Shown here piece by piece: positions 46,886 through 64,000 of a stretch of 64,000 bases of DNA. Every line of letters begins with the position of its first letter. Within the stretch, counting starts at the first letter, position 1. The DNA lies in the NCBI GenBank assembly GCA_019057385.1, contig JAHQJS010000004.1, positions 96,001 to 160,000 of the forward strand. Reading direction: 5' to 3'. The notes beneath the pieces are model-generated. The model saw nothing but the letters and a program-made list of their open reading frames with translations, was not told where the DNA came from and did not search any database. The translations under genes and the position numbers were made by a program. This DNA comes from Candidatus Borrarchaeum weybense (GTDB taxonomy: Archaea > Asgardarchaeota > Sifarchaeia > Borrarchaeales > Borrarchaeaceae).

Positions 46886-48334
46886 TTAATATTTCAAAAT
46901 GAATTCCTTCCTTTCGTTCCAGAATACATCTGGATTCCGTTGTTTGCCATACCCTAACCATTTATCGATTTTTACCCATAAGCGGTTCAACAAGGGAAAA
47001 TGTTTAATAAAAAATCGTGCGACACAATGTAACGAATGACGACTTTTCGTAAAGGGGCAAGAGGTGATGCAGACACTGCAGTCATTTCCATTGATTGTCC
47101 AGAAGTGATAGCAGGTCTCAGCGTTCACATACCATTTCAATACGCCAGGATTGTTTGATATAGTGGGACCTGACCACGATGGATCTCTTTCATAACTGAT
47201 TGACTGAGAGGGACAGGCTTCTGCGCACCGTTTGCATGTGCGGCAAAAATCGAGTGCTCCAAAATTGATTGATTTGTCCGGTACGAGGGGAAGATTGGTC
47301 AAGACTTTGCAGATTCTCACATTAGATCCAAATTGAGGGGTGATTAGTAACCCATGACGACCATATTGCCCTATTCCTGCATCAATGGCCATGGGCACAC
47401 TTAATCCAATATTATTCCCCGCCGGTATGGCATCATAGCCTAAGCCTCGGATAAACTCAGCAAGGCATGCTTGGATGAATGCCATGCGCGAATAACCATT
47501 GCCCGTCGCAAAGGCACCAGGGAATGCAGGGGTAGTTTGCAAAGCTTCTAGATCCATCTCAACGGCGACAACAATGGCGTTTTCAATATGATCGGGAATA
47601 TTAATGGGGTTTCCTTGTCTGTCGTGGGTATATAACCAGTCACGGTTGAGTTTGCAAACACCCACTAGTGCTGCCCCAAAGGCTTTTGCAGCCTGCTTCA
47701 CGATCTTTGTCATATTGTGGGGATCATCAATTATGACTTTTATGTCAGCGGGTTTTTCAAGTTCTACATCAAAACGTGCATCAATGGAGGCATTCAACTT
47801 CTTCCATGAAAAAGCTTCAGTAAAATGATCATAAACTGTCCAAGATGCTGAACTCAAAGCCTCATCAATTCTTGAATACCCTTTCTTGTTCAGGCGAAAA
47901 ACTTCTTCAAGATGAGCATGAACTCCAACTTGGTAATCTGCAAAACTAGGATCATTAAGCATCCGGGCAAAAATGATATGTTCCTCAGTGAAGGGACGGT
48001 AAACGCTGTGGTTGATAACGTAAGGACTTTGCTTCCAATGGTTCAAGTCCTCTGAAAGAGTCAAATCCTGTGTAGATTGCCGAGGTTTTACGATTTCGAC
48101 GCAGTAATCGATTGCTGCCATTGGACAATTGTCTAAACAGCGTCTGCAACTTCCACAGTTTCTAGACTTAATAATTGGCTTTCTGGTCTCGTTCGAGATG
48201 AAGATTGGACGGTGAATCGTAGACCGTTTTACAACTGGACATACATCTACACATTTATAATGGCAGCATTCTGGATCGCATTTTGTGTAGTCAACGCGGA
48301 TTTCTCTTTTGGTTTGTTTAGTTGTCGTTTTCAG
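46886..48334 (-). CDS. rdhA: Reductive dehalogenase (RdhA/QueG-like) with N-terminal ABCE1/RLI-like 2x[4Fe-4S] domain
   Basis: FGAALVG, YSRM, SVP.AIDAGIGQYGRHG..ITPQFG..VR, FCRTCKRCAEACP, C..CITSCP; the frame stays open 71 codons upstream of the ORF-track ATG (48121) to CTG at 48334. Confidence 0.85.
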   Translation of the reverse strand: MKTTTKQTKREIRVDYTKCDPECCHYKCVDVCPVVKRSTIHRPIFISNETRKPIIKSRNCGSCRRCLDNCPMAAIDYCVEIVKPRQSTQDLTLSEDLNHWKQSPYVINHSVYRPFTEEHIIFARMLNDPSFADYQVGVHAHLEEVFRLNKKGYSRIDEALSSASWTVYDHFTEAFSWKKLNASIDARFDVELEKPADIKVIIDDPHNMTKIVKQAAKAFGAALVGVCKLNRDWLYTHDRQGNPINIPDHIENAIVVAVEMDLEALQTTPAFPGAFATGNGYSRMAFIQACLAEFIRGLGYDAIPAGNNIGLSVPMAIDAGIGQYGRHGLLITPQFGSNVRICKVLTNLPLVPDKSINFGALDFCRTCKRCAEACPSQSISYERDPSWSGPTISNNPGVLKWYVNAETCYHFWTINGNDCSVCITSCPFTKSRHSLHCVARFFIKHFPLLNRLWVKIDKWLGYGKQRNPDVFWNERKEFILKY

Positions 48335-48548: not shown

Positions 48549-48953
48549 CTTTTCTACGCAAGAAGTCCCCCCAACTTATTGGGGGGATGAATTGAGGTCT
48601 GACGTTGCTCACACAACCCTTTCTGCGAGCATAGGGGGTGGTGTACCCAACCTCGGGTGGTGTTTTAATGACGGGTACTCGCTAGTTCCGCCGCTCCCAA
48701 CATCAGGGGAGTAGGTTCTTTTCTCCAAGGTTATCAGTCAGTACTCTACGATGATCACTGAGAGTTTCCTCTCTGTTTAAACCACCATTTACAGAGCACG
48801 GGAATAGAGAGGCATTCCGTGGTGTGTTCTTGAACTCTCCTGATAACGTAGATACCGTAATAGGTGTTTCATCACGACTTCCCTTAGGTTAATCAACCAA
48901 TTACTCTCGATTCTCACGGAACAAGTCCCCTAACATGTTAGGGGGTGATTGAC
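48549..48953 (+). mobile_element. 405-bp non-autonomous IS200/IS605 element carrying an IscB-type omegaRNA, no ORF
   Basis: TTTAT at 48544-48548, then N8-CGCAAGAAG and a CCCCCCAA..TTGGGGGG hairpin like the tnpB IS; right-end hairpin CCCCTAAC-AT-GTTAGGGG ending TTGAC. Confidence 0.85.
48690..48953 (-). ncRNA. HEARO / IscB omegaRNA scaffold (orphan)
   Basis: Minus strand reads GTCAATCACCCCC..GGGGACTTG...GTTGATTAACCTAAG...CTACGTTATCAGG...CACACC.CGGAATGC...GCTCTG...TTAAACAG...CAGTG...AACCTTGG, the order of motifs I recall for HEARO RNAs; 3' boundary approximate. Confidence 0.75.
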
Positions 48954-48981: not shown

Positions 48982-49099
48982 TGCTTAATCCTTAATTATT
49001 AGGTAAGGAATTCTTTTGCAACTGAAAGCGAAAATCGTTGAAAAACCAACCTATCAAATCATCTTTCAATCCTTATTAGGTAAGGAATTCTTTTGTAAT
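48982..49099 (-). CRISPR. Orphan mini-array B: two variant repeats and one 40-nt spacer
   Basis: 49063-49099 CTTTCAATCCTTATTAGGTAAGGAATTCTTTTGTAAT; 48982-49022 is the same variant with a 4-nt insertion; spacer 49023-49062. Confidence 0.85.
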
Positions 49100-49357: not shown

Positions 49358-50866
49358 TTAAATTTGAATTCTTGTGCCTTCGCCACCGTGCATGGACTTT
49401 CTAACACGGATTTGAGCGACTATTGGTGAGCGTACACAAACACCGGAAATAGTAGCAACGCCTTGAGGAAGAAACGGCAATCGATCAATGTCTTCATTTG
49501 AGCCAAGATTCAGAAAGGGTCTTACATAGTCAAGATCGGTTTTTGAATCAATTCTGAGCACTATTTTAGAACCACATTGGCTTAAAACATCTTTGTCCAA
49601 ACCGACTAGGCGCTGACTTGTGACACAGATGCCCAGTCCAAATTTCCTCCCTTCTCGTGCAAGACGTCTAAGCATTTTCTTACTATAACAGTCTAGCGCT
49701 TGCGGTGCGAAGCGATGCGCCTCTTCAATAATTACAAAACACGGTGGAACAAGATTCCTTTTCCTTGCTAGAAATATTTGTTTCATTACGATCGCAGCAA
49801 GTATTTGACGCACCCGTTCATCAATATCCTCTGAAAGGTCGATGATACATAACACACCTGGTTTAACTAACTCTTGTATATCAATTCCTTTTCCAAGAAT
49901 ATTCAATTCCTCAATTAAAAAAATACGTCGAATTACTGAAAGCGTTGTACGTGAATTGAATTTCCATTCCTCTGCAGTGGTTTTGATAGTATCCACAAGT
50001 TTTTGGATATCATAATCTTCAAGTTGTTTTAGTTTTTGTAGAGCAAGATAGAGAAGGTCCATTTGTGTTTCTGACATTGTAGTGATTTCAGACAATGCCT
50101 CTACGTCTAAGTCTTTAAGACGAATCGAAAGTTCATTTGTTTTAGTATTTCTTTCACGTGGAGGTGTATAAACCTTAGTGGGGTATCCTTGCGGATTAAC
50201 TCCAAAAAACTCCATTCTATGGAGTTCTTCCTGATTTGTACGCCGTATGGAGTTATATTCTCCGTGTGGATCTATGATTATAACTGGAATATCATGTTCA
50301 AGCAATTCTTCAATTATTACACCATTTGTGTAGGATTTACCACTTCCTGTTGAGCCTAATACCGCAAGATGGTATTTTACAAGTTTCTCTATGTCTGTTA
50401 CAATGTTAATCGGTGTAGGACCACGCATTTTACCGATATAAAGGCCATTAGAAGTTAATCCTAAGAACTTGCTTAGGAGTGACGTTCTTGCAGAGTATAT
50501 ATAATCGCCTGGTTCTGGAGAAATTTCAGGTGGTAAACGTTTATCATTTTCTAAGACACCGACAATATGTACCCGTGCCATTCGCCATCGCCCAATTCTG
50601 ACGGGTAATCGAGCAGAAATCTTTAATGAACGTTCTAAATGATCACGAACAAAATTAGGATCGTTATAATACGCATTTGAGGCTTGTATTAAATAGACGC
50701 GTCCAATGATGACTCGTGTGCCTACAGGTACTTCAACATAAGACCCTACTGGAAGATCGACCTCATCTTTTATTTGAAAATGAAATTCTAAGTGGTTTGG
50801 AGTGCGTCTATCACTCATTATTATACCAAGTTGACACACCGTGTCATCTTCAGTATGTTTTTCCAT
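49358..50866 (-). CDS. herA: HerA-family ATPase/translocase
   Basis: N-terminal HAS barrel, HLAVLGSTGSGKS, IIDPHGEY, IIEEAH, REGRKFG, SQR, LP.G.A. Confidence 0.92.
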   Translation of the reverse strand: MEKHTEDDTVCQLGIIMSDRRTPNHLEFHFQIKDEVDLPVGSYVEVPVGTRVIIGRVYLIQASNAYYNDPNFVRDHLERSLKISARLPVRIGRWRMARVHIVGVLENDKRLPPEISPEPGDYIYSARTSLLSKFLGLTSNGLYIGKMRGPTPINIVTDIEKLVKYHLAVLGSTGSGKSYTNGVIIEELLEHDIPVIIIDPHGEYNSIRRTNQEELHRMEFFGVNPQGYPTKVYTPPRERNTKTNELSIRLKDLDVEALSEITTMSETQMDLLYLALQKLKQLEDYDIQKLVDTIKTTAEEWKFNSRTTLSVIRRIFLIEELNILGKGIDIQELVKPGVLCIIDLSEDIDERVRQILAAIVMKQIFLARKRNLVPPCFVIIEEAHRFAPQALDCYSKKMLRRLAREGRKFGLGICVTSQRLVGLDKDVLSQCGSKIVLRIDSKTDLDYVRPFLNLGSNEDIDRLPFLPQGVATISGVCVRSPIVAQIRVRKSMHGGEGTRIQI

Positions 50867-50882
50867 AGCTCTCTATCCTATA

Positions 50883-52298
50883 TCACTTTTCTTGAGATAG
50901 CTCTCCCATTTGTGAGATATATTCTTTATATCCCAATCGAAAAGAACTGTCAACGATTTTTGATATAGATGTAACTAATTTCCGAGACAAATCTTGCGCA
51001 ATAACCATACTGCTGGGCCCATAGATAGAGCCTTGCATCTCTGGAACAAATAAAGTATATGCATAGTTCGCAATTTTTTCCTGTTCTGTAACAGGGTCAT
51101 CTAGACTTAGAAATTCTAATCGAATAACATGAGGATCTCTTTTAAGATAGAACTCGTATAAATTGTCTATATCTGGCCTCCCCTTCTCTTTTCTCCTTTT
51201 TACTAAACAAGTTAGATCGCGGTCGCGCAGTAGATTATGAAATAGATAAAAATCGCCACTATCTTTGAGATTGGGAAGTAAAGCAGCCTTTATACTTTTT
51301 GTGAAAATATTATCTTGTGGTTCCCTCACCACACCAACCCATAAGATGTTCTTTTTTTCGCTTTCTTGTTGTATTTTTAAAAATAACTTATAAGCACTAT
51401 TCCTAAGTTCCATCAGTTTTCGGCTTTGTACAAAAATTCCATGTGGGAAAAGTGATCCGTTATGAAACAAAATCTCTAACTCATCGCCCCACTGATCAAT
51501 AGTCTCTAAATCCGCTTTATAATGTTGAATTTTCTCAAGAAATCGTGCTGCAATCGAGCGTCCTGCACTTAATAACTCTGGGAACTCGCTGACTAATTCA
51601 TAAAATGGCTCATCGGCAGTAAAAGGATCATTACCTGAAAAAGTTTCTGTGCGAGGATATTCTATTACTTCAGATTTGTTATGAATTAGCATATTTTTCT
51701 CAAAATATCCTATATACGAAACAGAACTTAGATATGTGATTGTAAAAAAGGCGAAATCATATAAAGTGATATCATTTTTTTTACGGATTGCAGATGAACC
51801 TGGAACATAAATATTGTCTAACATAACATTTTTTGCCATCTTTTGCATTATTATTGTCTCACCTATCAAATCGTCAAATGGAGGCGCAGAATTTGATAAC
51901 AGAGGATAAAAATCCTCTGCATATTCGTAGGCAAAATTTGCTTTCTCTATAACTTTTCTCACTTTGTCTGCAACAGGTTTTGTTTTTAAAATTGAGATGT
52001 ATGCTGGAGAAAAGAATTTAGTCAATTGTAACTGATACGGCTCAATATCTTGGACGTTTATAGCGGATTCTACAAATTCTAAATCTACATCGTACGTTCC
52101 ATGCCCTTTATAAGATAAAACGCCGAGAACAGTTAGATCGTCAATATAATCTCTGATTAAACGCTCAGATAAATCAGCGCGTTCAGCCAAACTTTTTACA
52201 TTAACTTCTCCTTCTTCCAAAAAGAGGTTTGTGCAAGTATTGATCAGAAACATGAGTCGAGCTTTGTATGTTGAACCTGTGCGTCCCATGATTTTCAC
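50883..52298 (-). CDS. wHTH-fused NurA-like protein, predicted catalytically inactive
   Basis: N-terminal wHTH (LAERADLSERLIRDYIDDL...G); NurA-ordered motifs HNGSL, VGVVR, D..LF..LL, FY, RLE, P.....AQ; directly upstream of herA. Confidence 0.75.
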   Translation of the reverse strand: MKIMGRTGSTYKARLMFLINTCTNLFLEEGEVNVKSLAERADLSERLIRDYIDDLTVLGVLSYKGHGTYDVDLEFVESAINVQDIEPYQLQLTKFFSPAYISILKTKPVADKVRKVIEKANFAYEYAEDFYPLLSNSAPPFDDLIGETIIMQKMAKNVMLDNIYVPGSSAIRKKNDITLYDFAFFTITYLSSVSYIGYFEKNMLIHNKSEVIEYPRTETFSGNDPFTADEPFYELVSEFPELLSAGRSIAARFLEKIQHYKADLETIDQWGDELEILFHNGSLFPHGIFVQSRKLMELRNSAYKLFLKIQQESEKKNILWVGVVREPQDNIFTKSIKAALLPNLKDSGDFYLFHNLLRDRDLTCLVKRRKEKGRPDIDNLYEFYLKRDPHVIRLEFLSLDDPVTEQEKIANYAYTLFVPEMQGSIYGPSSMVIAQDLSRKLVTSISKIVDSSFRLGYKEYISQMGELSQEK

Positions 52299-52432
52299 CG
52301 AAATATATTTCCAATATAGATATATATACTCAATGCTTGCTTAAATAAATTGTGCGTTTTTAGATTGGTATAGAAGTATAAGAAAAGAAATTACATGATG
52401 CATTATACATTGGTTGAGAATAATCTAATTTA

Positions 52433-55400
52433 CTTTCAATCCTTATTACTTAAGGAATTCTTTTGCAACCAGAAACAAAATGGACTATCTATGATCGAAC
52501 TAAGTGAAATTTCAATCCTTATTACTTAAGGAATTCTTTTGCAACCAAAATGAATGAATTAACATCTCTTGAACTAAAATATTGATTTCAATCCTTATTA
52601 CTTAAGGAATTCTTTTGCAACAAACAAAATGAGAAATTATGAGAAATTTTTGAGCACTAAAATTTCAATCCTTATTACTTAAGGAATTCTTTTGCAACTC
52701 ACTCATTCAACCAACTCCTATTTTTATAGGTGCTTTAATTTCAATCCTTATTACTTAAGGAATTCTTTTGCAACATCTCCAGATAATCGCGATTCCCCGG
52801 TTGCCATCTTGAATTTCAATCCTTATTACTTAAGGAATTCTTTTGCAACTGTACCTGGTACATTTGGAAGCTTTTTCCAGGTAATATCAATTTCAATCCT
52901 TATTACTTAAGGAATTCTTTTGCAACCTATAGCAGAAACATCAGGTACTACTACTCCTGGTACTCCTACAGAATTTCAATCCTTATTACTTAAGGAATTC
53001 TTTTGCAACAAAAGGAGGGGATAACATTAGAAAAGAGATTGTAGTTGTATTTCAATCCTTATTACTTAAGGAATTCTTTTGCAACTTAAAAGTAAGACTC
53101 CCCCCCAGATGGCCTCTAACGTTGATTTCAATCCTTATTACTTAAGGAATTCTTTTGCAACTAATTGCATGAGAACATCATTTCACGCGCCAACAGCATC
53201 TTGTATTTCAATCCTTATTACTTAAGGAATTCTTTTGCAACTTAATTTTGCCTTAAATGGTTTAGAAAGACTTCTATCACAATTTCAATCCTTATTACTT
53301 AAGGAATTCTTTTGCAACTAGCTCATACGGTCTTGCCACTGGAAATGGTGATTTATGAAAATTTCAATCCTTATTACTTAAGGAATTCTTTTGCAACATA
53401 TCCTCATGGTACTGTTCGGTACGAGCATCGCCGTGATTTCAATCCTTATTACTTAAGGAATTCTTTTGCAACGCGATTTAATTACACAATTACAAAAAGT
53501 ACATAATGAAAATTTCAATCCTTATTACTTAAGGAATTCTTTTGCAACATTTTTGAAACTAACGAAGATACGGTATAATTCTATTTATTTCAATCCTTAT
53601 TACTTAAGGAATTCTTTTGCAACGAAAATCATACAATTAGATTAGTAGTAGCAAAACCCTAATTTCAATCCTTATTACTTAAGGAATTCTTTTGCAACAT
53701 TCCGCCAAAGATCCCGCACTTCCGATTGTAAACAAATATTTCAATCCTTATTACTTAAGGAATTCTTTTGCAACGGAGGACGTGAGCAGCGTCCCCCTCA
53801 TTGGTGATGAGTATTTCAATCCTTATTACTTAAGGAATTCTTTTGCAACCATGAACCATAAAATAAAAACAAAGCATTGGATTAATGATTTCAATCCTTA
53901 TTACTTAAGGAATTCTTTTGCAACGCAATCGAGAAATTAGATCGCTATGAAGTAGTAAAACTAATTTCAATCCTTATTACTTAAGGAATTCTTTTGCAAC
54001 CTCAAATACAAATCAATGTATGAAGTGTCTAACAATTGAATTTCAATCCTTATTACTTAAGGAATTCTTTTGCAACGTATCTAATTCATGTTGGAGGAGC
54101 TTAAAGGCATCCTTTTTATTTCAATCCTTATTACTTAAGGAATTCTTTTGCAACTTAGCGTCATTAATCTCGTTACCCATACCATAACTGAAGATTTCAA
54201 TCCTTATTACTTAAGGAATTCTTTTGCAACTAAAGAATGAATGAACAGCAAGCGAAAGCCTGTTTAAATTTCAATCCTTATTACTTAAGGAATTCTTTTG
54301 CAACCCAGAGTGCGTGATTACAACACCATTCAGTATTTACTAAATTTCAATCCTTATTACTTAAGGAATTCTTTTGCAACTATCCGGTTAGATATCCCTA
54401 CTTCTGGTAGTGGATGGAATTTCAATCCTTATTACTTAAGGAATTCTTTTGCAACTGTGAGGAGGAAAAAAATGGCAACTAAAATCTGTACAAAAATTTC
54501 AATCCTTATTACTTAAGGAATTCTTTTGCAACTACTGTAGTTGAAGCGTTTCTACACTTATTATTGTTTTATTTCAATCCTTATTACTTAAGGAATTCTT
54601 TTGCAACCTAAGTTTCTAAGGTAGGATAGTTCATAATGTTCTTTTATTTCAATCCTTATTACTTAAGGAATTCTTTTGCAACTCGGTAGTTGCCCAGATA
54701 TCGATGGGCGCGCTTTATGACACATTTCAATCCTTATTACTTAAGGAATTCTTTTGCAACTTTACAGACACAAACTGGAGATTCACCAACAACCAGAGAT
54801 TTCAATCCTTATTACTTAAGGAATTCTTTTGCAACCTAAGTTTCTAAGGTAGGATAGTTCATAATGTTCTTTTATTTCAATCCTTATTACTTAAGGAATT
54901 CTTTTGCAACTCGGTAGTTGCCCAGATATCGATGGGCGCGCTTTATGACACATTTCAATCCTTATTACTTAAGGAATTCTTTTGCAACTTTACAGACACA
55001 AACTGGAGATTCACCAACAACCAGAGATTTCAATCCTTATTACTTAAGGAATTCTTTTGCAACGTAACTATACGCAATATGCATCTGATTTCAAATTATC
55101 AATTTCAATCCTTATTACTTAAGGAATTCTTTTGCAACACTTGTTTTCATGGTTTTCATACATTCTACATGGATCCAAATTTCAATCCTTATTACTTAAG
55201 GAATTCTTTTGCAACCTTGTTTTTTCATCCTGCGAGATTAGTATATAATGTTAAATTTCAATCCTTATTACTTAAGGAATTCTTTTGCAACTTTGGTGGT
55301 AGTTGTACCTATAATCTCTACGTACTTGAATTTCAATCCTTATTACTTAAGGAATTCTTTTGCAACTTTGTTGGAAATTTTCCACCAAGGAACTCGAAAT

Positions 55401-56129
55401 AATTAAATTTCAATCCTTATTACTTAAGGAATTCTTTTGCAACTTGTTTATAATCATAGTTCTTATGGCGAGATCAAGATAATTTCAATCCTTATTACTT
55501 AAGGAATTCTTTTGCAACGATATCCATTCATGAACAATACTTCGAGTTTATCTTTAATTTCAATCCTTATTACTTAAGGAATTCTTTTGCAACATGAGAT
55601 AAAAAAGAAACGAGAAGAAGAGGAAAGACAAAAAATTTCAATCCTTATTACTTAAGGAATTCTTTTGCAACCCGAAGGAAAGTCTCCGTAGTCTCCAGAT
55701 CCACTACCAGTATTTCAATCCTTATTACTTAAGGAATTCTTTTGCAACTTTCTCAACGCGCTTTTTATACGTCGCCTTTAACTCTTATTTCAATCCTTAT
55801 TACTTAAGGAATTCTTTTGCAACGAACGACAGAGCAAAAAGCCCTATTGTTAGCAACGAAAGAATTTCAATCCTTATTACTTAAGGAATTCTTTTGCAAC
55901 TCCGCCAGATTTTAGGAGAAAATTAAAACTTCTTAGAGAATTTCAATCCTTATTACTTAAGGAATTCTTTTGCAACTTAATTGTAAATTCGATTCTACAA
56001 AGACCTGCTGCTTTTATTTCAATCCTTATTACTTAAGGAATTCTTTTGCAACCTAAGATAAACTCAAAACCAATATCTGAATATGTTGTATGATTTCAAT
56101 CCTTATTACTTAAGGAATTCTTTTGCAAC
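52433..56129 (-). CRISPR. CRISPR array, 49 repeats (37 bp, GTTGCAAAAGAATTCCTTAAGTAATAAGGATTGAAAT) and 48 spacers
   Basis: Repeats counted by eye; spacers about 37-46 nt; the ATTGAAAT 3' end and the variant terminal repeat at 52433 put the leader on the right. Confidence 0.98.
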
Positions 56130-56678
56130 CCTAGTTTATATTGAAGATAAGATAGGTAAAAAACCTTATGGTGCACCCTTTTCAGAGGCTGTTTGTGCTG
56201 GAGGGGCAATTGAGCTCTTCTTTATAAATACCAGCAGAAAACGCTCTCCAGGGAAGCCTTTATGACATTGCTCCTTTGGGTATGACACTGCCATTTTTGC
56301 TGGTCGTGCTTTTGATCACCTCCTTATAAATACCAGCAGAAATAGCCCTTTATAAAGGCTCTAAAAAAGTGCAAAATCGAGCGGCAAAGAGTTCAGACTG
56401 CACACTAAGAAAATTAAAGGAAAATCAACTGATTTTAACACCTAAGAGGTTGCTATCTACCATTTTATTAAATAATGCTACTTAAAACACATTTAAAATT
56501 CATTAAATCCTTTTGCGCCTCATATGAATACTATGAATAAAGAAGCCGACGTATTTTTGCCATAAACACCAGTTCCCAGTTAAATGATACTCACAACTTT
56601 TATCGAGCGAAGACTTTATATAGCCATTATGGAAATATATTTCTATATAGTACCTATATTTCAATAAGTTGTGATCAT
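56130..56678 (-). promoter_or_regulatory. CRISPR leader and divergent promoter of the adaptation operon
   Basis: Non-coding stretch between the first repeat and the cas operon; contains duplicated TTATAAATACCAGCAGAAA (56222-56240, 56324-56342). Confidence 0.75.
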
Positions 56679-57590
56679 ATGCTTCAAATATTTCCCAAAC
56701 TCAATCTTGCACAAACTCAAGCAAAAAGTGACTTGCGTATAAACAATTATTTCTGGAAAGAATTTATGGATTTTTATGTGCCTTGCCTTTATATGAAAGC
56801 AGGATATCACCACTTTTCCTGTATATTGCATGGATCGCTCTATTTTAACCTCGGTAAACAGTTTTGTGTTAATTGTGGTGTTCATATCGCCCCTCATACC
56901 TCTCTATCTCTTTGCAATGCATGTTATCAAACTAAAGATACGGCACATCTTCTCTGTATTTTAAAGGGAGCTGGTGCCCCCTATGCCAAACTTTGCGATT
57001 TAGAGAATCCACCTTGTCACGATCTTTACAGAATAGAATCATTTTGCAAAACTGAACACATAGTATACATCGGAAGATTTGGATCACTTTTCAAAGTTGG
57101 TGTAACACGGAATTCACGGAAAGAAAATTCGGGTATCCATTCAAGGTTCTTAGATCAGGGACTTGATGAAGCCTTCATCATTTCTCAAGAACTTACACTT
57201 CCAGAAGCGCAAAGACTTGAAGCGAAATTATCTACGCTTCTAAGAATTCCCAAGTGGATCAGCTTCCCAGAAAAAGTGGAAAACATCATAAAAAATGCTA
57301 AAATGAATGATTCTTCAGATAAAGACGCCATTTCCGCAAAAATGAACTCAATTAGAACAATGCTGACCAAATTCGTACCAGAAGAGGCTGTTTCTCACGC
57401 TATTGTTGATCGCGCATATATGATTGGATACATCCACACTGATTGTCTTGAATGGATCTCACGACCCGAACAGTTAGAAGGAGAAGTAGTTGTAGCTAAA
57501 GGAAATGTTTTGATTACGCGACTTGGCTCAAATTATTTAGTTTATGATTTGGCCAAACTTCAAGGGCGAGAAATATTACTCGGAGGCTAA
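56679..57590 (+). CDS. DUF2797-like Zn-binding / GIY-YIG-like protein
   Basis: CVNCG...CNACY...C..EHIVYIG....KVGVTR......RFLDQG..EA...EA..LE; ends LEG.V...KG; stop 2 nt before the cas1 ATG. Confidence 0.75.
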   Translation: MLQIFPKLNLAQTQAKSDLRINNYFWKEFMDFYVPCLYMKAGYHHFSCILHGSLYFNLGKQFCVNCGVHIAPHTSLSLCNACYQTKDTAHLLCILKGAGAPYAKLCDLENPPCHDLYRIESFCKTEHIVYIGRFGSLFKVGVTRNSRKENSGIHSRFLDQGLDEAFIISQELTLPEAQRLEAKLSTLLRIPKWISFPEKVENIIKNAKMNDSSDKDAISAKMNSIRTMLTKFVPEEAVSHAIVDRAYMIGYIHTDCLEWISRPEQLEGEVVVAKGNVLITRLGSNYLVYDLAKLQGREILLGG

Positions 57591-57592
57591 AT

Positions 57593-58615
57593 ATGATCGT
57601 CTTCGTCTCAGATCACGGGTCAAAAATTGGAAAACATGGTGAACGTATAAAAGTCACATCGCTTACTGGTGAGAAAAAAGAATATTCCGCTGTAAAAATC
57701 TCAGAGATTGTCATCGAAGCCAATGTTTCTATAAGTTCTCAAGTTCTCAAACTTTTAGCTCGACATGGTGTTCCTGTTCTTTTTGTTGGCAATCATAGGC
57801 CTTATGGCATTTTCCATCCATATGTCTCTCATGGGACAATTCTGACACGAAGAGAACAACTAACTGCGTATCATGATCAAAGAGGCACAAAAGCAGCCAT
57901 TGCCTTCGCTAAAGCAGCCATTCAAAATAAAGCATTCTTTATCAACTCACTCTTAAGAAATCGAAAGAAAACTCAACCAGAATTAGCTCAATCTTTAGAA
58001 GAAACGTATGAAAAAATAATCCAATTATCTAGTCTTGTGGATAACCACAAAGGTCATGTTGATATGATTAGAAACGCTTTGATGGGCATCGAAGGTAAAG
58101 CTACCGATTATTACTTCGAACAACTTAAAAAAGTGATACCGGACGACTTTCGTTTTAATGATCGAAATCGACGGCCTCCTCAAGATCCTGTAAATTCATT
58201 GCTCAGTTATGGTTACTCTGTATTAAATACTCGTGTGCTCTGCTATGTGATCTTAGCTGGACTTGATCCATTTTGTGGCTTCTTACATGCAGATCGATCT
58301 GGGAAACCATCTCTTACTCTTGATATCATCGAAGAATTTCGCCAGCCTATCGTAGACAGGATCGTGCTAAAGCTTGTTACCAGACGCATGATTGACCCCA
58401 ATAAAGACTTCGAAAAGAAAGATGGTATGTGCTTTATGTCTCAAAACGCTAAAACAACTTTGCTTGAAGCGCTGTTCGAGCGCTTTAGGACTTCAGTAAA
58501 ATATCACGATAAAAACGTGAAATTTGAAAATGTGATCTTTAAACAGACACGGCAACTTGCTGCATTCTTCATGCATCGTATTCCTGATTATGTACCGTTT
58601 ATCCCAGGGTGGTAA
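57593..58615 (+). CDS. cas1: CRISPR-associated endonuclease Cas1
   Basis: LMGIEG.A...YF, R.RRPPQDPVNSLLSYGY, GLDP..GFLH, SL.LD..EEFR. Confidence 0.97.
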   Translation: MIVFVSDHGSKIGKHGERIKVTSLTGEKKEYSAVKISEIVIEANVSISSQVLKLLARHGVPVLFVGNHRPYGIFHPYVSHGTILTRREQLTAYHDQRGTKAAIAFAKAAIQNKAFFINSLLRNRKKTQPELAQSLEETYEKIIQLSSLVDNHKGHVDMIRNALMGIEGKATDYYFEQLKKVIPDDFRFNDRNRRPPQDPVNSLLSYGYSVLNTRVLCYVILAGLDPFCGFLHADRSGKPSLTLDIIEEFRQPIVDRIVLKLVTRRMIDPNKDFEKKDGMCFMSQNAKTTLLEALFERFRTSVKYHDKNVKFENVIFKQTRQLAAFFMHRIPDYVPFIPGW

Positions 58616-58902
58616 CTATTCCCGATCAAATTGTCACTTATGATATCCCTAATGACTCCTTAAGAAAGAAGATATCCGATAAATTGCTCGATTACGGCCT
58701 TTCCCGAATTCAATTCAGTGTCTTTCAAGGACGCCTCAGCAGGAATATGATCGAAATGCTGGCGATTGAAATAAAGGAATTGTTAGATAAACAAGATGGG
58801 GACATCCGTATCTTCACAATTTGCGGAATTTGCCTGAAAAAGACTCTTCTCATCACCAATAACCCTACTCCAGTTAAAGGAGGCATCTTGCAAGTATGTT
58901 GA
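58609..58902 (+). CDS. cas2: CRISPR-associated Cas2
   Basis: VTYDI, L.DYGL.RIQFSVF.G, DIRIF.IC..C. Confidence 0.95.
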   Translation: MVTIPDQIVTYDIPNDSLRKKISDKLLDYGLSRIQFSVFQGRLSRNMIEMLAIEIKELLDKQDGDIRIFTICGICLKKTLLITNNPTPVKGGILQVC

Positions 58903-59477
58903 TATCAAAAAGTCTCTGGTTCACTCCAGAAGCCGTCCGCCAACATGTGTATTGCCCTCGAATTACATACTTTAGATATGTAGATGATACTTCTGTGCAA
59001 ATGACGATAAAAATGAAAAAAGGCGTAGATGACCACGAAAAAACGTTACGCGGAAAAAATACTTCTAATAGAAGAAGTAATGTTATCCGATATTATAACC
59101 TTAGACTGGAAAACCCGTATTTCCGCTTGTATGGCTTGTTAGATGTTGCAGAAGTAAAGGATAGTGAAATATATCCCGTAGATCGAAAAACTGGTAAAGC
59201 CCCTGAACATGGAGTTTATCGCCCTCATCGATTTCAGTTAGTTGCAGAAGCGTTTCTCATAGAAGCTAATTTCGGAAGAGACGTCTCTAAAGGAGTTATT
59301 GAATATAGGAACGCAGGGAGGAGAGTGGTAATTCTCTCTATAAAGGATAAATTAGAGTTCATAAATATATTAAATAAAATGAGACAAGTTGTTTCTCAAG
59401 AAAAATTACTGAAACCAACTCCTCACCTCAGAAAATGCACGGATTGTGAATATTGGAAAAAATGTAGAAGAGTTTAA
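58896..59477 (+). CDS. cas4: CRISPR-associated Cas4
   Basis: YCPR, G..DH, LYGLLD, PVDRKTG, Q...A, C.DCEY...C. Confidence 0.93.
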   Translation: MLISKSLWFTPEAVRQHVYCPRITYFRYVDDTSVQMTIKMKKGVDDHEKTLRGKNTSNRRSNVIRYYNLRLENPYFRLYGLLDVAEVKDSEIYPVDRKTGKAPEHGVYRPHRFQLVAEAFLIEANFGRDVSKGVIEYRNAGRRVVILSIKDKLEFINILNKMRQVVSQEKLLKPTPHLRKCTDCEYWKKCRRV

Positions 59478-59722
59478 ATAAAAAATCAATAAATATCACT
59501 TGAAGGCTTATATTGAATATAATGAAACAATTATCTCTCAAGAAAAAACTATGATAATTTAAATAGTTGATAGACAAATTGTCACAGAAAAGCAATGACA
59601 TATCTGCTTCCGCAGAGTACTGATGACGAACTTTAGGTATACAAAACTCTCATGTGGGCGGGGGGTTACTACGATTTTCAAGCATCAACGCTATTGGAAT
59701 CACATATAAAGGTGAGAAATTG

Positions 59723-61525
59723 ATGTTAAAACCAATTAGAGAGTTAGGAAAATATCTAAGAGACAATAAAAATTTGAACCAACTTCAGATTTTAACTGAA
59801 TCATCTAAACTTAAAAATACAAAAAAGATGATTTGCGTAGTTTTCAGTAAAGAAGAAGAGGGACTTGCTTTTGATAACGTTTATATCGAAGATTTCGATC
59901 AAGAAAAGGCGGAAAAAATACTTTACAGAACCTTTAGGCATGCTCGATATGATGCCACATTAACAGCGAAAATAACTAAACCCGATATGATTGAGAAAAG
60001 ATGGACTCTGTGGTTTGGTAAATATTTTGAGAAGTTTAAAGATGTTTTTCCAGAACTTGATTCATTAAAAGAAGCAGTCGAATCAAATAAAGATAAACTA
60101 ATTGAAGAAATTTCAGAAAAATACACGTCACTTGATAAAACAGAGAAAAGGGGCTGTCTTGTTACTATCAAGATAAAAGAAGGACGCAATGAAAAATATT
60201 TAGCAGATATTCCAGAATTTATTGAAATTTTTAAAACAACATCAATGGAGGATTTTTATTACAAGCACAAAGTAGAGTCTATAGGTGAAGGTACCTGTTG
60301 CTTGTGTATGAAAAATGAAAAAGTGATTCCAGCTTCGCCTTTTCCAGTTTTTACTGTAGATAAAGAAGGCTTCGCATATGGTTTTGATCGGGCAAATTCT
60401 TGGAAACAATTACCTATTTGTATAGAATGCACATTGGATTTGCAAGCTGGTAAGGGTTTTTTGAAAAACAAGCTCTCATTCATTCTTTATGGGTATCAGT
60501 ACTTTGTTATACCACATTTTATATTCAAAGAAATTTCAAGCGAAATAATCGATGAAATAGAATATAGGGGACGCAAAGATTATAGAAATGGCTTACTTAA
60601 TGCAGAGGAAGATATTTTGGAGGAAATGAAAGAAAAAGGCGATATATTGAATTTAATATTCGTTTTCTGTAAACCAAAACAGCAATTTTTTGACATTATA
60701 CGATACAGCGAAGATGTTTCTCCATCCTGGATAAAGAAGATGTATGATGATTTTGATGCTACTAATCGAAAAATGATTTTCAAACAAAAAAATTTGAAAG
60801 TAATATTGGGGGATAAATGGTCAGAGGGTTTCAGAAAGGGACAATGGGCTGGTAAAAGCATTAAAAATTTGAATTTATCAGGTATAGTTAAAACATTTTT
60901 CCCGACTAACTTTATTGATATCTTAGGAAATATTTTAGACCAAGAAAAAATGCACGACTATTATTTACTAAGTTCTTTAATAAAGCCGATAAGGGAACAA
61001 CATGGGCAAGGTAATGAATGGAGTGAGAAATTACTCACTCTTAAATCATTTTATTTATTTAACTTTCTTTTAGATTTGAATTTGGTTCATACAAGTCATT
61101 TTAAAAGCAAGCAATGTAAAGAGATGAACTTTATGAAAGAAACAAAGTATAGGCGATTAGAGGAATTTTTTAATGAATTCCAGAACGCCTTTGACACATC
61201 TGATAAGAAGGCAATTTTCTTAGAAGGTGTACTTGTGAATTTTCTTTTAAGCGTGCAGTATGCACAACGAGGATCAACGCCATTCAGAAAAAAGCTATAT
61301 GGACTAAAACTAGATAAAAGAAAAATTAAAAGACTTTTACCAGTAATTATAGAGAAGTTCAGAGCATATAACACCGCGTATCCCAATTTGGAAGCGTTAA
61401 TTTCGAAATATTTTGTTGAAGCCGATGAAAATGGTTGGAAGGTATCAGATAATGAATTAGGTTATTATTTTGCGCTTGGATTAAATCTTGGAAAATTTTT
61501 TAAAGGAGGTGATAAGCTTGAGTGA
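59723..61525 (+). CDS. cas8b: Type I-B large subunit Cas8b (Csh1/TM1802-like), including the Cas11-like C-terminus
   Basis: CCLC, FTVDK.GF, PIC.EC, FLEGVL..LL..Q....STPF, YYFALG; ATG at 59723 after AAGGTGA. Confidence 0.9.
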   Translation: MLKPIRELGKYLRDNKNLNQLQILTESSKLKNTKKMICVVFSKEEEGLAFDNVYIEDFDQEKAEKILYRTFRHARYDATLTAKITKPDMIEKRWTLWFGKYFEKFKDVFPELDSLKEAVESNKDKLIEEISEKYTSLDKTEKRGCLVTIKIKEGRNEKYLADIPEFIEIFKTTSMEDFYYKHKVESIGEGTCCLCMKNEKVIPASPFPVFTVDKEGFAYGFDRANSWKQLPICIECTLDLQAGKGFLKNKLSFILYGYQYFVIPHFIFKEISSEIIDEIEYRGRKDYRNGLLNAEEDILEEMKEKGDILNLIFVFCKPKQQFFDIIRYSEDVSPSWIKKMYDDFDATNRKMIFKQKNLKVILGDKWSEGFRKGQWAGKSIKNLNLSGIVKTFFPTNFIDILGNILDQEKMHDYYLLSSLIKPIREQHGQGNEWSEKLLTLKSFYLFNFLLDLNLVHTSHFKSKQCKEMNFMKETKYRRLEEFFNEFQNAFDTSDKKAIFLEGVLVNFLLSVQYAQRGSTPFRKKLYGLKLDKRKIKRLLPVIIEKFRAYNTAYPNLEALISKYFVEADENGWKVSDNELGYYFALGLNLGKFFKGGDKLE

Positions 61526-62540
61526 ACTAAACAGAACAGAGATTGTGTTTTTGTATGATGTAATGTATGCAAACCCAAATGGAGACCCAATGGAAGAAAA
61601 TAGGCCTAGAATTGATGAGGAAACTAGTATAAATATTGTGACCGATGTACGATTGAAAAGAACAATACGGGATTATTTCCTGACATTGATTGGCAACGGA
61701 GATGAAAGGCTTAAGGGGCAAGACGTTTTTATAAAAGAGGTAAGAGACTCAGAGGGGTACCTCTACGATGCAAAGACAAGGGCCAAAGATTTTCTAAGAG
61801 AGGAAGAAGAAACATTTTCGGAAATAAAAGAAAAACTTAAAGATGAAATTTGCTCTAAATGTATAGACATTCGACTTTTTGGAGGCGTAATTCCGCTAGA
61901 GTTTAAGATCAGTAATAAAACTGAAAAAGGCTCAATAACTCTAACAGGACCAGTACAATTTAAATTTGGGAGATCACTTCATCGCGTAGAGGTAAAATAC
62001 ATTCAAGGAACCGGGGCGTTTGCTTCAGATTATTCAGAAACTAAAAAGAGCACGCAGTTCACGTTTAGAGAAGAGTATGTTCTTCCATATTCACTGATTT
62101 GCTTCTACGGTATTATAAACGAAAATGCTGCAAGAACAACTAAATTAACTGAGAACGACATAAACCTGCTTTTGGAAGGCGTATGGGATGGGACAAAGAA
62201 TTTAATTACTAGATCAAAGGCTGGACAAGTGCCAAGGTTTTTATTGAAGGTCGTTTACAAGGAGACCAATTTTCACAGAGGCGATTTAGATAAAATGATT
62301 AAATTGGTGTCCGAAGGAGAAGAAGAGAAGATAAGGGATATCTCTGAGGTAAAACTGGATATTTCAGAGTTGGTGAGTACACTAAAAGAATACAAAGAGA
62401 AAATACACAGAATAGAGCTTAAGGTTGATAATAGAGCAATATTCACAACAAACGGACAAGATTTTACAAGTAACGAATTAAAAACGAAATTAAAAGAGAT
62501 AGGACTTCAAGAAAATCAAATTGGAGAATTAAACTTCTAA
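61518..62540 (+). CDS. cas7: Type I-B Cas7 (Csh2)
   Basis: NPNGDP..ENRPRID, VTDVRLKRTIRDY, DIRLFG, TGPVQF; TTG start after GGAGGTGA. Confidence 0.95.
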   Translation: MSELNRTEIVFLYDVMYANPNGDPMEENRPRIDEETSINIVTDVRLKRTIRDYFLTLIGNGDERLKGQDVFIKEVRDSEGYLYDAKTRAKDFLREEEETFSEIKEKLKDEICSKCIDIRLFGGVIPLEFKISNKTEKGSITLTGPVQFKFGRSLHRVEVKYIQGTGAFASDYSETKKSTQFTFREEYVLPYSLICFYGIINENAARTTKLTENDINLLLEGVWDGTKNLITRSKAGQVPRFLLKVVYKETNFHRGDLDKMIKLVSEGEEEKIRDISEVKLDISELVSTLKEYKEKIHRIELKVDNRAIFTTNGQDFTSNELKTKLKEIGLQENQIGELNF

Positions 62541-62550
62541 GGGTTGAATT

Positions 62551-63270
62551 ATGGTAAATAGAATACTAGTATTTGATCTCTGGAGTGACTTAGCACACTT
62601 TAGAAGGATAGAAACTACGACATCTCCTCTTACCTATCCTTTTCCTACGGGAACTACAATAGCCGGTCTTCTTGGGGCCATCTCAGGTCTTCCAAGAGAT
62701 TCATACTATAATTTGTTTTCTAGGGAAAGTATCGAATATTCATTTCGAATTCTGAATCCTATAAAGAAAATTGTTATTCCAATCAGCATAGTAAAAACAG
62801 ATGATCCTAGTTGGATCTATTTGTGGAAACTTAAAGATCCTAGGACACCCACTCCATATGAATTTGTAAAAGATCCAAAATACAGATTGTATATACATTT
62901 TAAAACTTTAAAGCTTGAAAAGACGTATAAGACGTTAAAAAACCTTCTAGAGAACCATCAAACTATTTATACACCTTACCTTGGCATTAGTGAGATGATT
63001 GCTAATTTTAAGTTTATTGGAGACATAAAAGCCATCCCGATTCAAATTGAAAATAAACCTGAGTATTTACATAGCGTAGCGAGTATAAAAACTATCAAGA
63101 TAGTTCCAAAAGAAGGAAAATATGGAAGAGAAACAATACCTCTCTATATGGATAATGAAAGGATCGTTCTCGAATATGGTACTGTTATTTACGAAGCAAA
63201 CGGTAAACCGCTCAATTTTTGTGACAGCACTATTTATGATGTAGATGGTGAAAATGTCTCCTTTCTTTAA
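62551..63270 (+). CDS. cas5: Type I-B Cas5
   Basis: FDLWSDLAHFRR..TTTSPLTY..P..T.I.GL.GAI.G, YTPYLG. Confidence 0.95.
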   Translation: MVNRILVFDLWSDLAHFRRIETTTSPLTYPFPTGTTIAGLLGAISGLPRDSYYNLFSRESIEYSFRILNPIKKIVIPISIVKTDDPSWIYLWKLKDPRTPTPYEFVKDPKYRLYIHFKTLKLEKTYKTLKNLLENHQTIYTPYLGISEMIANFKFIGDIKAIPIQIENKPEYLHSVASIKTIKIVPKEGKYGRETIPLYMDNERIVLEYGTVIYEANGKPLNFCDSTIYDVDGENVSFL

Positions 63271-64000
63271 ACTTAAATCACATTCAGATAAATTACTTAA
63301 AAAACATTTAGAAAACGTGGGTAGGTTATCTAAAGAAATAGTTAACTCAAAATCAATAGAAACAAGGGAAATCCTTGCTGAGGTTGCGTATTTAATTGGA
63401 ATAGTTCATGATTTCGGTAAATCTACTTCTTACTTCCAAAAGTGGTTAAACAACGGGGAAAGAACAAAATACGCGCAACATGGCTTTCTGTCCGCGCTAG
63501 TTGGATATCTAGCTGTTAGAAATTTTCTATCAAATATTCAAAAACTTGATGAATTATGGTTTCTGCCTGGGATAGCTTGGATTGTAATAAATAAACATCA
63601 TGGGAATTTAAGAGATATCCTTAACAAAGAGGCTTTGAAATTAAAAAATGAAGAGCAATTAGAGCTTATAGGCAAACAATTAAAAGATATTCTTAATAAT
63701 TCAGCAACTGAAGTTGATGAGTTTTACAAGTTGTTGGGATATTCAGAAATTTCAAAACTATTAAACGAGATAAGAAAATTCAGGCAACTCGCACGAGAAA
63801 TATACAAAGACATTAAGAAAATGTGCATGAGTAGTTTTAAAGAAATTTCTCTTAAATATTATTTTTGGACTCTCTTCTTTTACTCGATATTACTCGATGT
63901 TGACAAATTGGACGCTTCTAGAAGAAGTGATCTCCCAGAAAGGATGGATATACCCAGCGATATCGTTGATTCATACAAAAAGATTAGGTTTAAAGAACCG
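63254..64000 (+). CDS. cas3: Cas3 (HD nuclease domain; truncated by window end)
   Basis: Translated by eye: MSPFFKLKSHSDKLLKKHLENV...HDFGKSTSYFQ...HGFLSA...KHHGNL...LLDVDKLDAS; overlaps the cas5 3' end. Confidence 0.93.
   Translation, partial: MSPFFKLKSHSDKLLKKHLENVGRLSKEIVNSKSIETREILAEVAYLIGIVHDFGKSTSYFQKWLNNGERTKYAQHGFLSALVGYLAVRNFLSNIQKLDELWFLPGIAWIVINKHHGNLRDILNKEALKLKNEEQLELIGKQLKDILNNSATEVDEFYKLLGYSEISKLLNEIRKFRQLAREIYKDIKKMCMSSFKEISLKYYFWTLFFYSILLDVDKLDASRRSDLPERMDIPSDIVDSYKKIRFKEP

Follow-up and report, generated by a model that had tools for sequence, protein, structure and literature searches.

The 64,000-nucleotide stretch analysed here (the window) covers positions 96001-160000 of contig C4 (G000:C4:96001-160000) in the 4.18 Mb, eight-contig genome of Candidatus Borrarchaeum weybense (G000), and carries a type I-B CRISPR (short palindromic repeats that are clustered and regularly interspaced) locus in which a two-gene nurA-herA-like unit and a cas1 operon headed by a DUF2797-like gene lie on either side of a repeat array. 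The array (52433-56129, minus strand) is made up of 49 copies of a 37-nt repeat, against 0 expected by chance, and its sole variant repeat is the terminal copy at 52433, with one mismatch. Since the reverse complement of the repeat has ATTGAAAT as its 3' end, transcription of the array most likely runs along the minus strand and enters from the 56130-56678 side, which would most likely place the leader there and the trailer beside the two-gene unit. This unit consists of an open reading frame (ORF) for a NurA-like protein with a winged helix-turn-helix (wHTH), referred to below as wNurA (50883-52298, minus strand, 471 amino acids), and, after a gap of 16 nt, a herA paralogue (49358-50866, minus strand, 502 amino acids). 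On the leader side the DUF2797-like gene (56679-57590; Pfam PF10977) is followed by cas1 (57593-58615), cas2 (58609-58902) and cas4 (58896-59477), all on the plus strand, the three cas genes being identified by both Pfam and NCBIfam, with gaps of +2, -7 and -7 nt. An earlier note on this DNA, made from the letters alone, had described the same arrangement with its near-zero gaps, and the coordinates and the Pfam and NCBIfam matches agree with it; as it had also stated, neither mre11 nor rad50 adjoins the wNurA-herA pair.

The likely true start of wNurA is the ATG at 52289, which yields the family-conserved N-terminus MGRTGSTY. No NurA match was found for the protein in Pfam at E <= 0.01 (it falls below the PF09376 threshold), no NCBIfam or PADLOC model matched it, and phmmer and hmmsearch comparisons with PDB sequences returned weak wHTH matches only and no NurA; a genome-wide search with PF09376 likewise had as its sole match the canonical nurA on contig C8 and not the NurA-like ORF. 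An AlphaFold2 model built with 15 relatives (predicted local distance difference test, pLDDT, 79.5) was compared with the PDB using Foldseek, and its best match was NurA of S. solfataricus (2ygk_A, E 6.5e-8), followed by the Deinococcus and Thermococcus HerA-NurA complexes and then by the related PIWI and EndoV folds. An hhalign comparison of the wNurA family with 23 canonical Asgard NurAs gave a probability of 98.7 (E 2.3e-15), and in genome searches the family profile also retrieved canonical NurAs at 1e-6 to 1e-12. By fold and by profile comparison, wNurA is thus clearly a true NurA homologue. Many Asgard genomes (G004, G006, G007, G021, G051 and others) hold three to five NurA paralogues.

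The catalytic columns were read in 20 wNurA family members from a profile-based alignment, not a structural superposition, and all four NurA catalytic positions were found to be lost in 20/20 relatives. The canonical motif-I Asp is replaced by GS[SA] and the catalytic Glu by a near-invariant His (H259), while the DGS Asp and the C-terminal Asp/His both correspond to variable positions, the former being occupied by Asp in one of the 20. At the other end of the protein, residues 8-71 of the AlphaFold2 model form three helices and a two-strand beta-wing, that is, a winged helix, and this region gives weak ArsR/SmtB, HTH_11, PafC and DeoR matches. The proposal in the earlier note of a non-cutting NurA with an HTH is therefore borne out by fold, profile and alignment, and the reading of wNurA as a nuclease-dead NurA with an added wHTH is supported as far as sequence and modelling can take it. 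About 45 positions are invariant among relatives that share 32-40% identity, which indicates that the protein is under selection, and wNurA would be a clear case of a repair nuclease retained as a pseudo-enzyme.

The HerA encoded beside the array matches Pfam DUF87 (PF01935) with 120 bits, above the cut-off, comprises a HAS-barrel and an FtsK-like ATPase, and has its Walker A (GSTGSGKS), Walker B (VIIEEAH) and arginine-finger (REGRK) motifs all present. It scored 141 and 132 bits with the NCBIfam housekeeping HerA models NF040819 and NF040937, whose cut-offs are 970 and 800 bits, and PADLOC models for defence HerAs matched it at 1e-43 to 1e-27, the generic HerA models giving 147 bits as against 80 bits for the 'Type III coevolved' HerA model. 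Seven DUF87/HerA-type matches were found across the genome, and contig C8 carries a canonical nurA-herA pair that adjoins genes for a RIO kinase and CTP synthase and is itself without mre11 or rad50; the idea that the copy beside the array is the genome's only HerA was therefore rejected. In a tree of 46 HerA sequences, all 20 wNurA-linked HerAs fell into one split (support 98/92), and the HerAs linked to canonical NurA, including the C8 copy of this genome, fell into another (99/100) that follows taxonomy. These separate clades indicate that the array-side HerA is a paralogue in its own right, co-inherited with wNurA, and they remove the objection that it might simply be the housekeeping enzyme. 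A third group of HerAs (L025-L028, L047, L049), encoded beside some Asgard NurA paralogues, belongs to neither the repair clade nor the CRISPR-linked one.

A word-index search for relatives of wNurA returned only 15 proteins. When 400 Asgard genomes were searched with the family profile, full-length wNurA turned up in about 20 of them, spread over at least nine families, and in none of four other genomes of the same genus as G000. In all 20 loci examined herA lies directly 3' of wNurA, adjacent and co-oriented. Linkage was counted in the 17 loci for which 9 kb or more of context was available, a neighbour being a cas gene or array within 10 kb, and 14 of the 17 had such a neighbour, the loci without one being L014, L097 and L101. 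The company kept by the pair varies: it lies beside type I-B genes in the window, type I-A genes in L012, a type I locus in L018, type III genes in L019 and adaptation genes in L021, L093 and L104. Co-oriented wNurA-herA-cas6 runs occur in seven loci, and in four (L016, L091, L092, L100) an array, wNurA-herA and cas6 stand alone, with no effector or cas1 genes nearby. As far as we have seen, the pair is confined to Asgard archaea, and the named relatives of the locus proteins belong to Promethearchaeota, Jordarchaeia/Freyarchaeota and Heimdallarchaeota. All three genes singled out in the earlier note (wNurA, herA and the DUF2797-like gene) recur beside cas genes in other Asgard genomes, and so the doubt that they are not enriched there no longer stands.

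The DUF2797 protein matches PF10977 with 55.2 bits (gathering score 25) and is matched by no PADLOC or NCBIfam model. A profile search of 1.84 billion representatives returned 602 DUF2797 cluster representatives, 44 of them below 1e-30, and those that are named are Asgard. Strong full-length matches of the cas type were found in about 38 of the 400 Asgard genomes, and in 29 of the 30 best Asgard loci cas1 lies directly downstream, usually with cas2 and cas4, the sole exception being a locus cut by a contig end. The coupling to cas1 noticed earlier in the window thus extends across these loci. A second, weaker-scoring branch of DUF2797 is widespread and was beside cas genes in none of eight sampled loci, and bacterial DUF2797 is likewise a non-cas gene (PMC9425974), which together mark the cas branch as a dedicated offshoot. 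The non-cas branch (L140-L147, in eight Asgard genomes) has the same layout of barrel, Cys-rich part and KVG...R...EQGAD, and its genes are usually single-copy.

In the AlphaFold2 model of the DUF2797 protein (pLDDT 91), the N- and C-terminal strands form a beta-barrel, which is joined by a CxxC...CxxC zinc ribbon and a core at about residues 124-242. When this core was compared with 48,161 chains using VIA-align, the top three matches were the GIY-YIG nucleases HIGLE and Slx1 (Z 5.0-5.3; root mean square deviation 2.3-2.7 over 77-80 residues), and the UvrC GIY-YIG domain scored Z 3.5. In a set of 58 sequences Y130 never varies, at least 90% have R156 and E181, and the likewise conserved K139-x-G141 stands in place of 'YIG'; Y130, R156 and E181 were assigned as the GIY-YIG catalytic Tyr, Arg and Glu by motif order, not by superposition. 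There is thus moderate evidence that the modelled core fits a GIY-YIG/T5orf172-like pattern, and the protein may be a nuclease. A complex prediction for Cas1 with the DUF2797 protein scored 0.00, which weighs neither for nor against binding.

The two operons on either side of the array have a short sequence in common at their promoters. The 13-mer GGAAATATATTTC, which contains the 12-nt perfect palindrome GAAATATATTTC, occurs on the minus strand in the wNurA-herA promoter (52300-52312), 8 nt downstream of the TATA-like TATATATA (52328-52321) and separated by 10 nt from the ATG at 52289 that follows, and again on the plus strand in the DUF2797-cas1-cas2-cas4 promoter (56631-56643), 8 nt downstream of the TATA-like TTTATATA (56615-56622), the DUF2797 ATG following after 35 nt. 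Three copies of the 13-mer occur in the whole genome against 0.5 expected, and two of them stand at the identical offset from the TATA-like box in these two promoters. The 12-mer has five copies in G000, the three that are not at these promoters being two intragenic and one intergenic. Five palindromes away from the promoters were considered as further members of a regulon, and four of them, all intragenic (two in G000, one in G038 and one in G029), look like chance occurrences; the fifth, the intergenic copy in G000 (G000:C6:85406; L137 2407), lies upstream of a 400-amino-acid minus-strand ORF.

L018 likewise has the palindrome ahead of the two operons, and so does G153, with proteins only 28-36% identical to those of the window. 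Of 15 relatives, 11 carry it upstream of wNurA, exactly or with one to two mismatches and in the same position with respect to a TATA-like box; GAAGTTTATTTC is an operator variant of the f8 lineage. Upstream of DUF2797-cas1 the palindrome was found in nine of 13 wNurA-positive genomes and in one of 13 wNurA-negative genomes, this one being G312, to whose genus another genome with wNurA belongs. G125, one of the four wNurA-positive genomes that do not score in this count, carries the palindrome in the divergent intergenic region common to both operons. Five other whole genomes hold one to two copies each, and six of these eight copies are at wNurA or DUF2797-cas1 promoters; in G152 this is so though the two operons are on different contigs. 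Because it lies over the expected transcription start, is conserved across distant lineages and is tied to the presence of wNurA, the palindrome is best explained as the operator of a dimer-forming wHTH protein, namely wNurA, a reading drawn from sequence and position; the sequencing runs listed for this material were of sediment metagenome DNA, with no RNA among them.

The counts also bear on the earlier view of wNurA, HerA and DUF2797 as a single three-gene machine. Among the wNurA genomes, 13 of 20 also have a cas-type DUF2797 gene and seven do not, and about 25 of the 38 genomes with cas-type DUF2797 are without wNurA; one obligatory system of three genes is rejected by these figures. Together with the occurrence of the pair beside type I-A genes, type III genes and cas6 alone, they indicate separable modules. 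The suggested analogy with RecBCD is not indicated either, since a pair with a dead NurA has no nuclease. Instead, the shared and conserved operator links the two operons and points to regulation, so that the mechanistic reading needs revising, from a prespacer machine to a regulatory or sensor module accompanied by a new adaptation gene. We hold the chances to be about even that the locus is made up of two separate CRISPR-linked modules coupled by regulation, and regard as equally finely balanced the proposal that the dead-NurA/HerA pair is an auto-regulated controller or sensor of the adaptation genes and not a prespacer-cutting machine.

In such a circuit a dimer of dead NurA would cap the HerA hexamer, by analogy with the solved HerA-NurA complexes, and the assembly could load onto DNA or move along it with no cleavage. 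The dimer would carry two wHTH heads, the most likely readers of GAAATATATTTC, which overlaps the transcription start expected for the wNurA-herA operon as well as that of the DUF2797-cas1-cas2-cas4 operon, and through it the pair would repress its own genes and those for spacer acquisition. This repression would be lifted when the ring engages DNA, for example the free ends of incoming or broken molecules; the step from engagement to derepression is speculation. The cas-branch DUF2797 protein, as the first product of the adaptation operon, would most likely help Cas1-Cas2-Cas4 to capture or trim prespacers. The analysis itself shows the homology, the missing catalytic residues, the gene linkage, the separate clade of the HerA and a conserved operator common to both operons that co-occurs with wNurA; we infer wHTH-NurA as the binder of the operator, repression as its effect, the sensing of DNA ends as its trigger and nuclease activity for the DUF2797 protein. 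The proposal in its fullest form, in which a dead-NurA ring on HerA is a DNA-end sensor that switches on Asgard spacer acquisition through its winged helices and a 12-nt operator, the operon so controlled being headed by an unrecognised GIY-YIG-type Cas protein, is put forward tentatively, the balance of our judgement being against it. If true, a repair machine would have been recast as a signal-transducing transcription factor for adaptive immunity. How cells, and above all archaea, time spacer acquisition is poorly understood, and the locus offers a testable circuit with one operator, two promoters and one candidate binder with a DNA-handling ATPase. It would also add two candidate cas families, the cas-only DUF2797/GIY-YIG-like gene and the dead-NurA/HerA pair, in Asgard archaea, whose CRISPR biology is almost unstudied.

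Several observations weigh against this controller reading. One wNurA clade (L019, L021, L100) has no recognisable palindrome, and in G029, G116 and G017 none was seen upstream of DUF2797. A single genus supplies six of the nine genomes that score, which leaves few independent lineages, about four families (three if G125 is set aside). The palindrome could also be bound by a regulator other than wNurA. The frequent wNurA-herA-cas6 order and the loci without a nearby cas1 suggest a role beyond adaptation. As to the loss of nuclease activity, the wNurA family retains the invariant polar residues H259, H286, D329, D349, E371 and E382, and because of this a different catalytic site, formed for example from H259, D272 and H286, may conceivably exist. 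For the DUF2797 protein, Foldseek found nothing in the PDB below E 0.001, and the support from VIA-align is modest (Z about 5).

Of the other explanations, the one that survives best keeps the pair in the supply of prespacers, with HerA and a non-cutting NurA cap unwinding or feeding DNA ends in a RecBCD/AddAB-like manner and DUF2797 and Cas4 cutting prespacers for Cas1-Cas2. The pair does neighbour DUF2797-cas1-cas2-cas4 here and in L018, L093, L104 and G038, and the common operator makes it probable that the two operons are co-expressed; moreover, Bernick et al. (PMC3396285) proposed an adaptation role for CRISPR-linked nurA-herA, and Sulfolobus Csa3a is described as co-activating adaptation genes and nurA/herA (PMC5587795). 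Such a machine is, however, hard to square with the seven wNurA genomes that have no DUF2797 gene, with the greater part of DUF2797-cas1 operons being in genomes without wNurA, and with pairs that have type III genes or just cas6 for neighbours and lack a cas1 within 10 kb. Nor would the feeding of DNA explain a wHTH of the sequence-specific type and a palindromic operator. We consider this explanation unlikely.

A second explanation, which appears to us quite unlikely, would have the pair act with Cas6 and the array, in transcription through the repeats, array stability or leader recognition, and would leave the palindrome to some other factor. It draws on the seven loci in which cas6 lies directly 3' of herA, on the four loci reduced to array, wNurA-herA and cas6, and on the order nurA-csm6-herA-cas6 in the Pyrobaculum cluster (PMC3396285). 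HerA is, however, a DNA translocase that nothing ties to RNA processing, cas6 lies 10 kb off on the other side of the locus in the window's genome, and the operator tracks the presence of wNurA and not that of cas6.

The PADLOC matches of the HerA, together with the patchy distribution of the pair, present in G000 and not found in four genomes of its genus as is typical of accessory defence genes, raise the possibility of a stand-alone HerA-based defence module that is clustered with CRISPR only as part of a defence island. Sir2-HerA and DUF4297-HerA are HerA-scaffolded anti-phage systems whose partners are enzymes, an NADase and a nuclease respectively. They resemble the pair described here in joining a HerA paralogue to a non-canonical partner in a defence context and in the PADLOC HerA models that match; in contrast to their enzyme partners, however, the NurA-like partner here has a DNA-binding head, no recognisable effector domain or active site, and has lost its nuclease site. 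The linkage is moreover specific to cas genes and arrays, and with an operator in common with the cas1 operon it exceeds generic island clustering, which makes a stand-alone module improbable. Finally, that the pair is a degenerating copy of the housekeeping repair genes and plays no part in CRISPR, as the lost active site and the several NurA/HerA paralogues of Asgard genomes might suggest, is hardly credible given the intact 471-amino-acid frame, its numerous invariant positions, the intact HerA with which it is always paired and its conservation next to cas loci in at least seven Asgard families.

CRISPR-linked HerA and NurA have been described before, and the earlier claim of a new CRISPR accessory module holds only in part. 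A nurA-csm6-herA cluster, followed by cas6 in P. aerophilum, is known from Pyrobaculum and other Thermoproteales (PMC3396285); 'Cas HerA' and 'Cas NurA' of types I and III, always together, were listed by Vestergaard et al. 2014 (PMC3973734); HerA and NurA make up clusters 57/58, co-evolved with type III, in Shah et al. 2018 (PMC6546367); and CRISPR-linked nurA-herA have been named as candidate auxiliary genes (PMC10910872). None of the papers searched, in a coverage of the literature that is incomplete, describes the wHTH-fused dead NurA, the link between DUF2797 and cas1 or the operator, and it is in the dead wHTH-fused form and DUF2797-cas1 that the claim of novelty would stand. The Thermoproteales and Asgard pairs are both paralogous pairs set apart from the repair pair and kept beside arrays and type I or III cas genes, in both the two genes are always together, and cas6 is often 3' of herA. 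Compared by description and not by sequence, they differ in that csm6 lies between the genes in Thermoproteales, no CARF or csm6 gene being found between or beside the pair in the Asgard loci read, and in that the Asgard NurA has an N-terminal wHTH, retains none of the four catalytic residues and scores too low for the Pfam NurA model.

With canonical HerA-NurA (SsoNurA, 2YGK; T. kodakarensis, 9X1L-9X1N) the pair has in common the NurA fold, the HAS-barrel HerA ATPase and adjacent co-oriented genes, and by this analogy wNurA and HerA probably assemble ring-on-ring; it differs in having other residues in place of the catalytic Asp/Glu/Asp/His(Asp), an additional wHTH and a HerA that belongs to a separate clade. 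A regulatory counterpart is Csa3a, a CARF-wHTH protein that regulates the type I-A adaptation genes in Sulfolobus (Liu et al. 2017, PMC5587795). The likeness lies in a locus-encoded wHTH protein, a proposed operator at a promoter of csa1/cas1-type adaptation genes and the tying of adaptation to NurA/HerA, whereas Csa3a has a CARF sensor where the Asgard system would have a putative dead-NurA ring and HerA motor, and there is no sequence relationship. The cas-branch DUF2797 gene for its part takes the same first slot, abutting cas1, as Csa1 (Cas4') in cassettes of the csa1-cas1-cas2-cas4 type, and like it is a predicted nuclease; the PD-(D/E)XK fold of Csa1 is, however, unrelated to the zinc ribbon, GIY-YIG-like core and beta-barrel of DUF2797.

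The remainder of the locus supplies the type I-B complement, with the signature gene cas8b (59654-61525, plus strand; Cas_TM1802/Csh1 match), cas7 (61488-62540, plus strand), cas5 (62551-63270, plus strand) and cas3 with HD and helicase domains (from 63245 to beyond the window end at 64000, plus strand) as interference genes, and cas6 (Cas6 match) on the opposite strand just past the window (G000:C4:161751-162581), in addition to cas1-cas2-cas4. The locus beside the array is the sole standard cas1 locus of the genome. Weak Cas1-domain matches were also found far from arrays at G000:C5:121343-122176 (E 3e-10) and G000:C4:342074-342907 (E 7e-9), both in very long open frames of 1347-1367 amino acids that could be Cas1-solo or casposase-like fusions.

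Within the array a 228-nt block of three repeat-spacer units is tandemly duplicated (54571-55067, 99% identity). The leader and divergent promoter region (56130-56678, no strand assigned) holds a 56-nt direct repeat that occurs twice (56192-56247 and 56294-56349); the copies are 77% identical, each with TTATAAATACCAGCAGAAA, and may be duplicated array-promoter or leader elements. Repeats also recur beyond herA, as had been pointed out, in the form of a degenerate two-repeat mini-array on the minus strand (about 48982-49022 and about 49063-49099), seen by direct reading and by a blastn-short match (C4:145004-145095). The 3' 19 nt of its first copy equal the main repeat exactly, and its second copy was missed by a repeat search allowing three mismatches because it has five. 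About 30 nt downstream of this mini-array and on the same strand lies a HEARO/IscB omega-RNA match (48711-48953, minus strand; Rfam, 94.6 bits against a gathering score of 83) with no iscB ORF nearby; it is adjoined by an ORF of 411 amino acids (46886-48121, minus strand) with reductive-dehalogenase-like and 4Fe-4S dicluster domains. On the other side, three further repeat copies lie just past cas6 (G000:C4:162766-162941), and a solitary full-length repeat, 97% identical, is found 6 kb further on (C4:168253-168289) at the end of a Sec23/24-like VWA gene surrounded by amino-acid biosynthesis genes.

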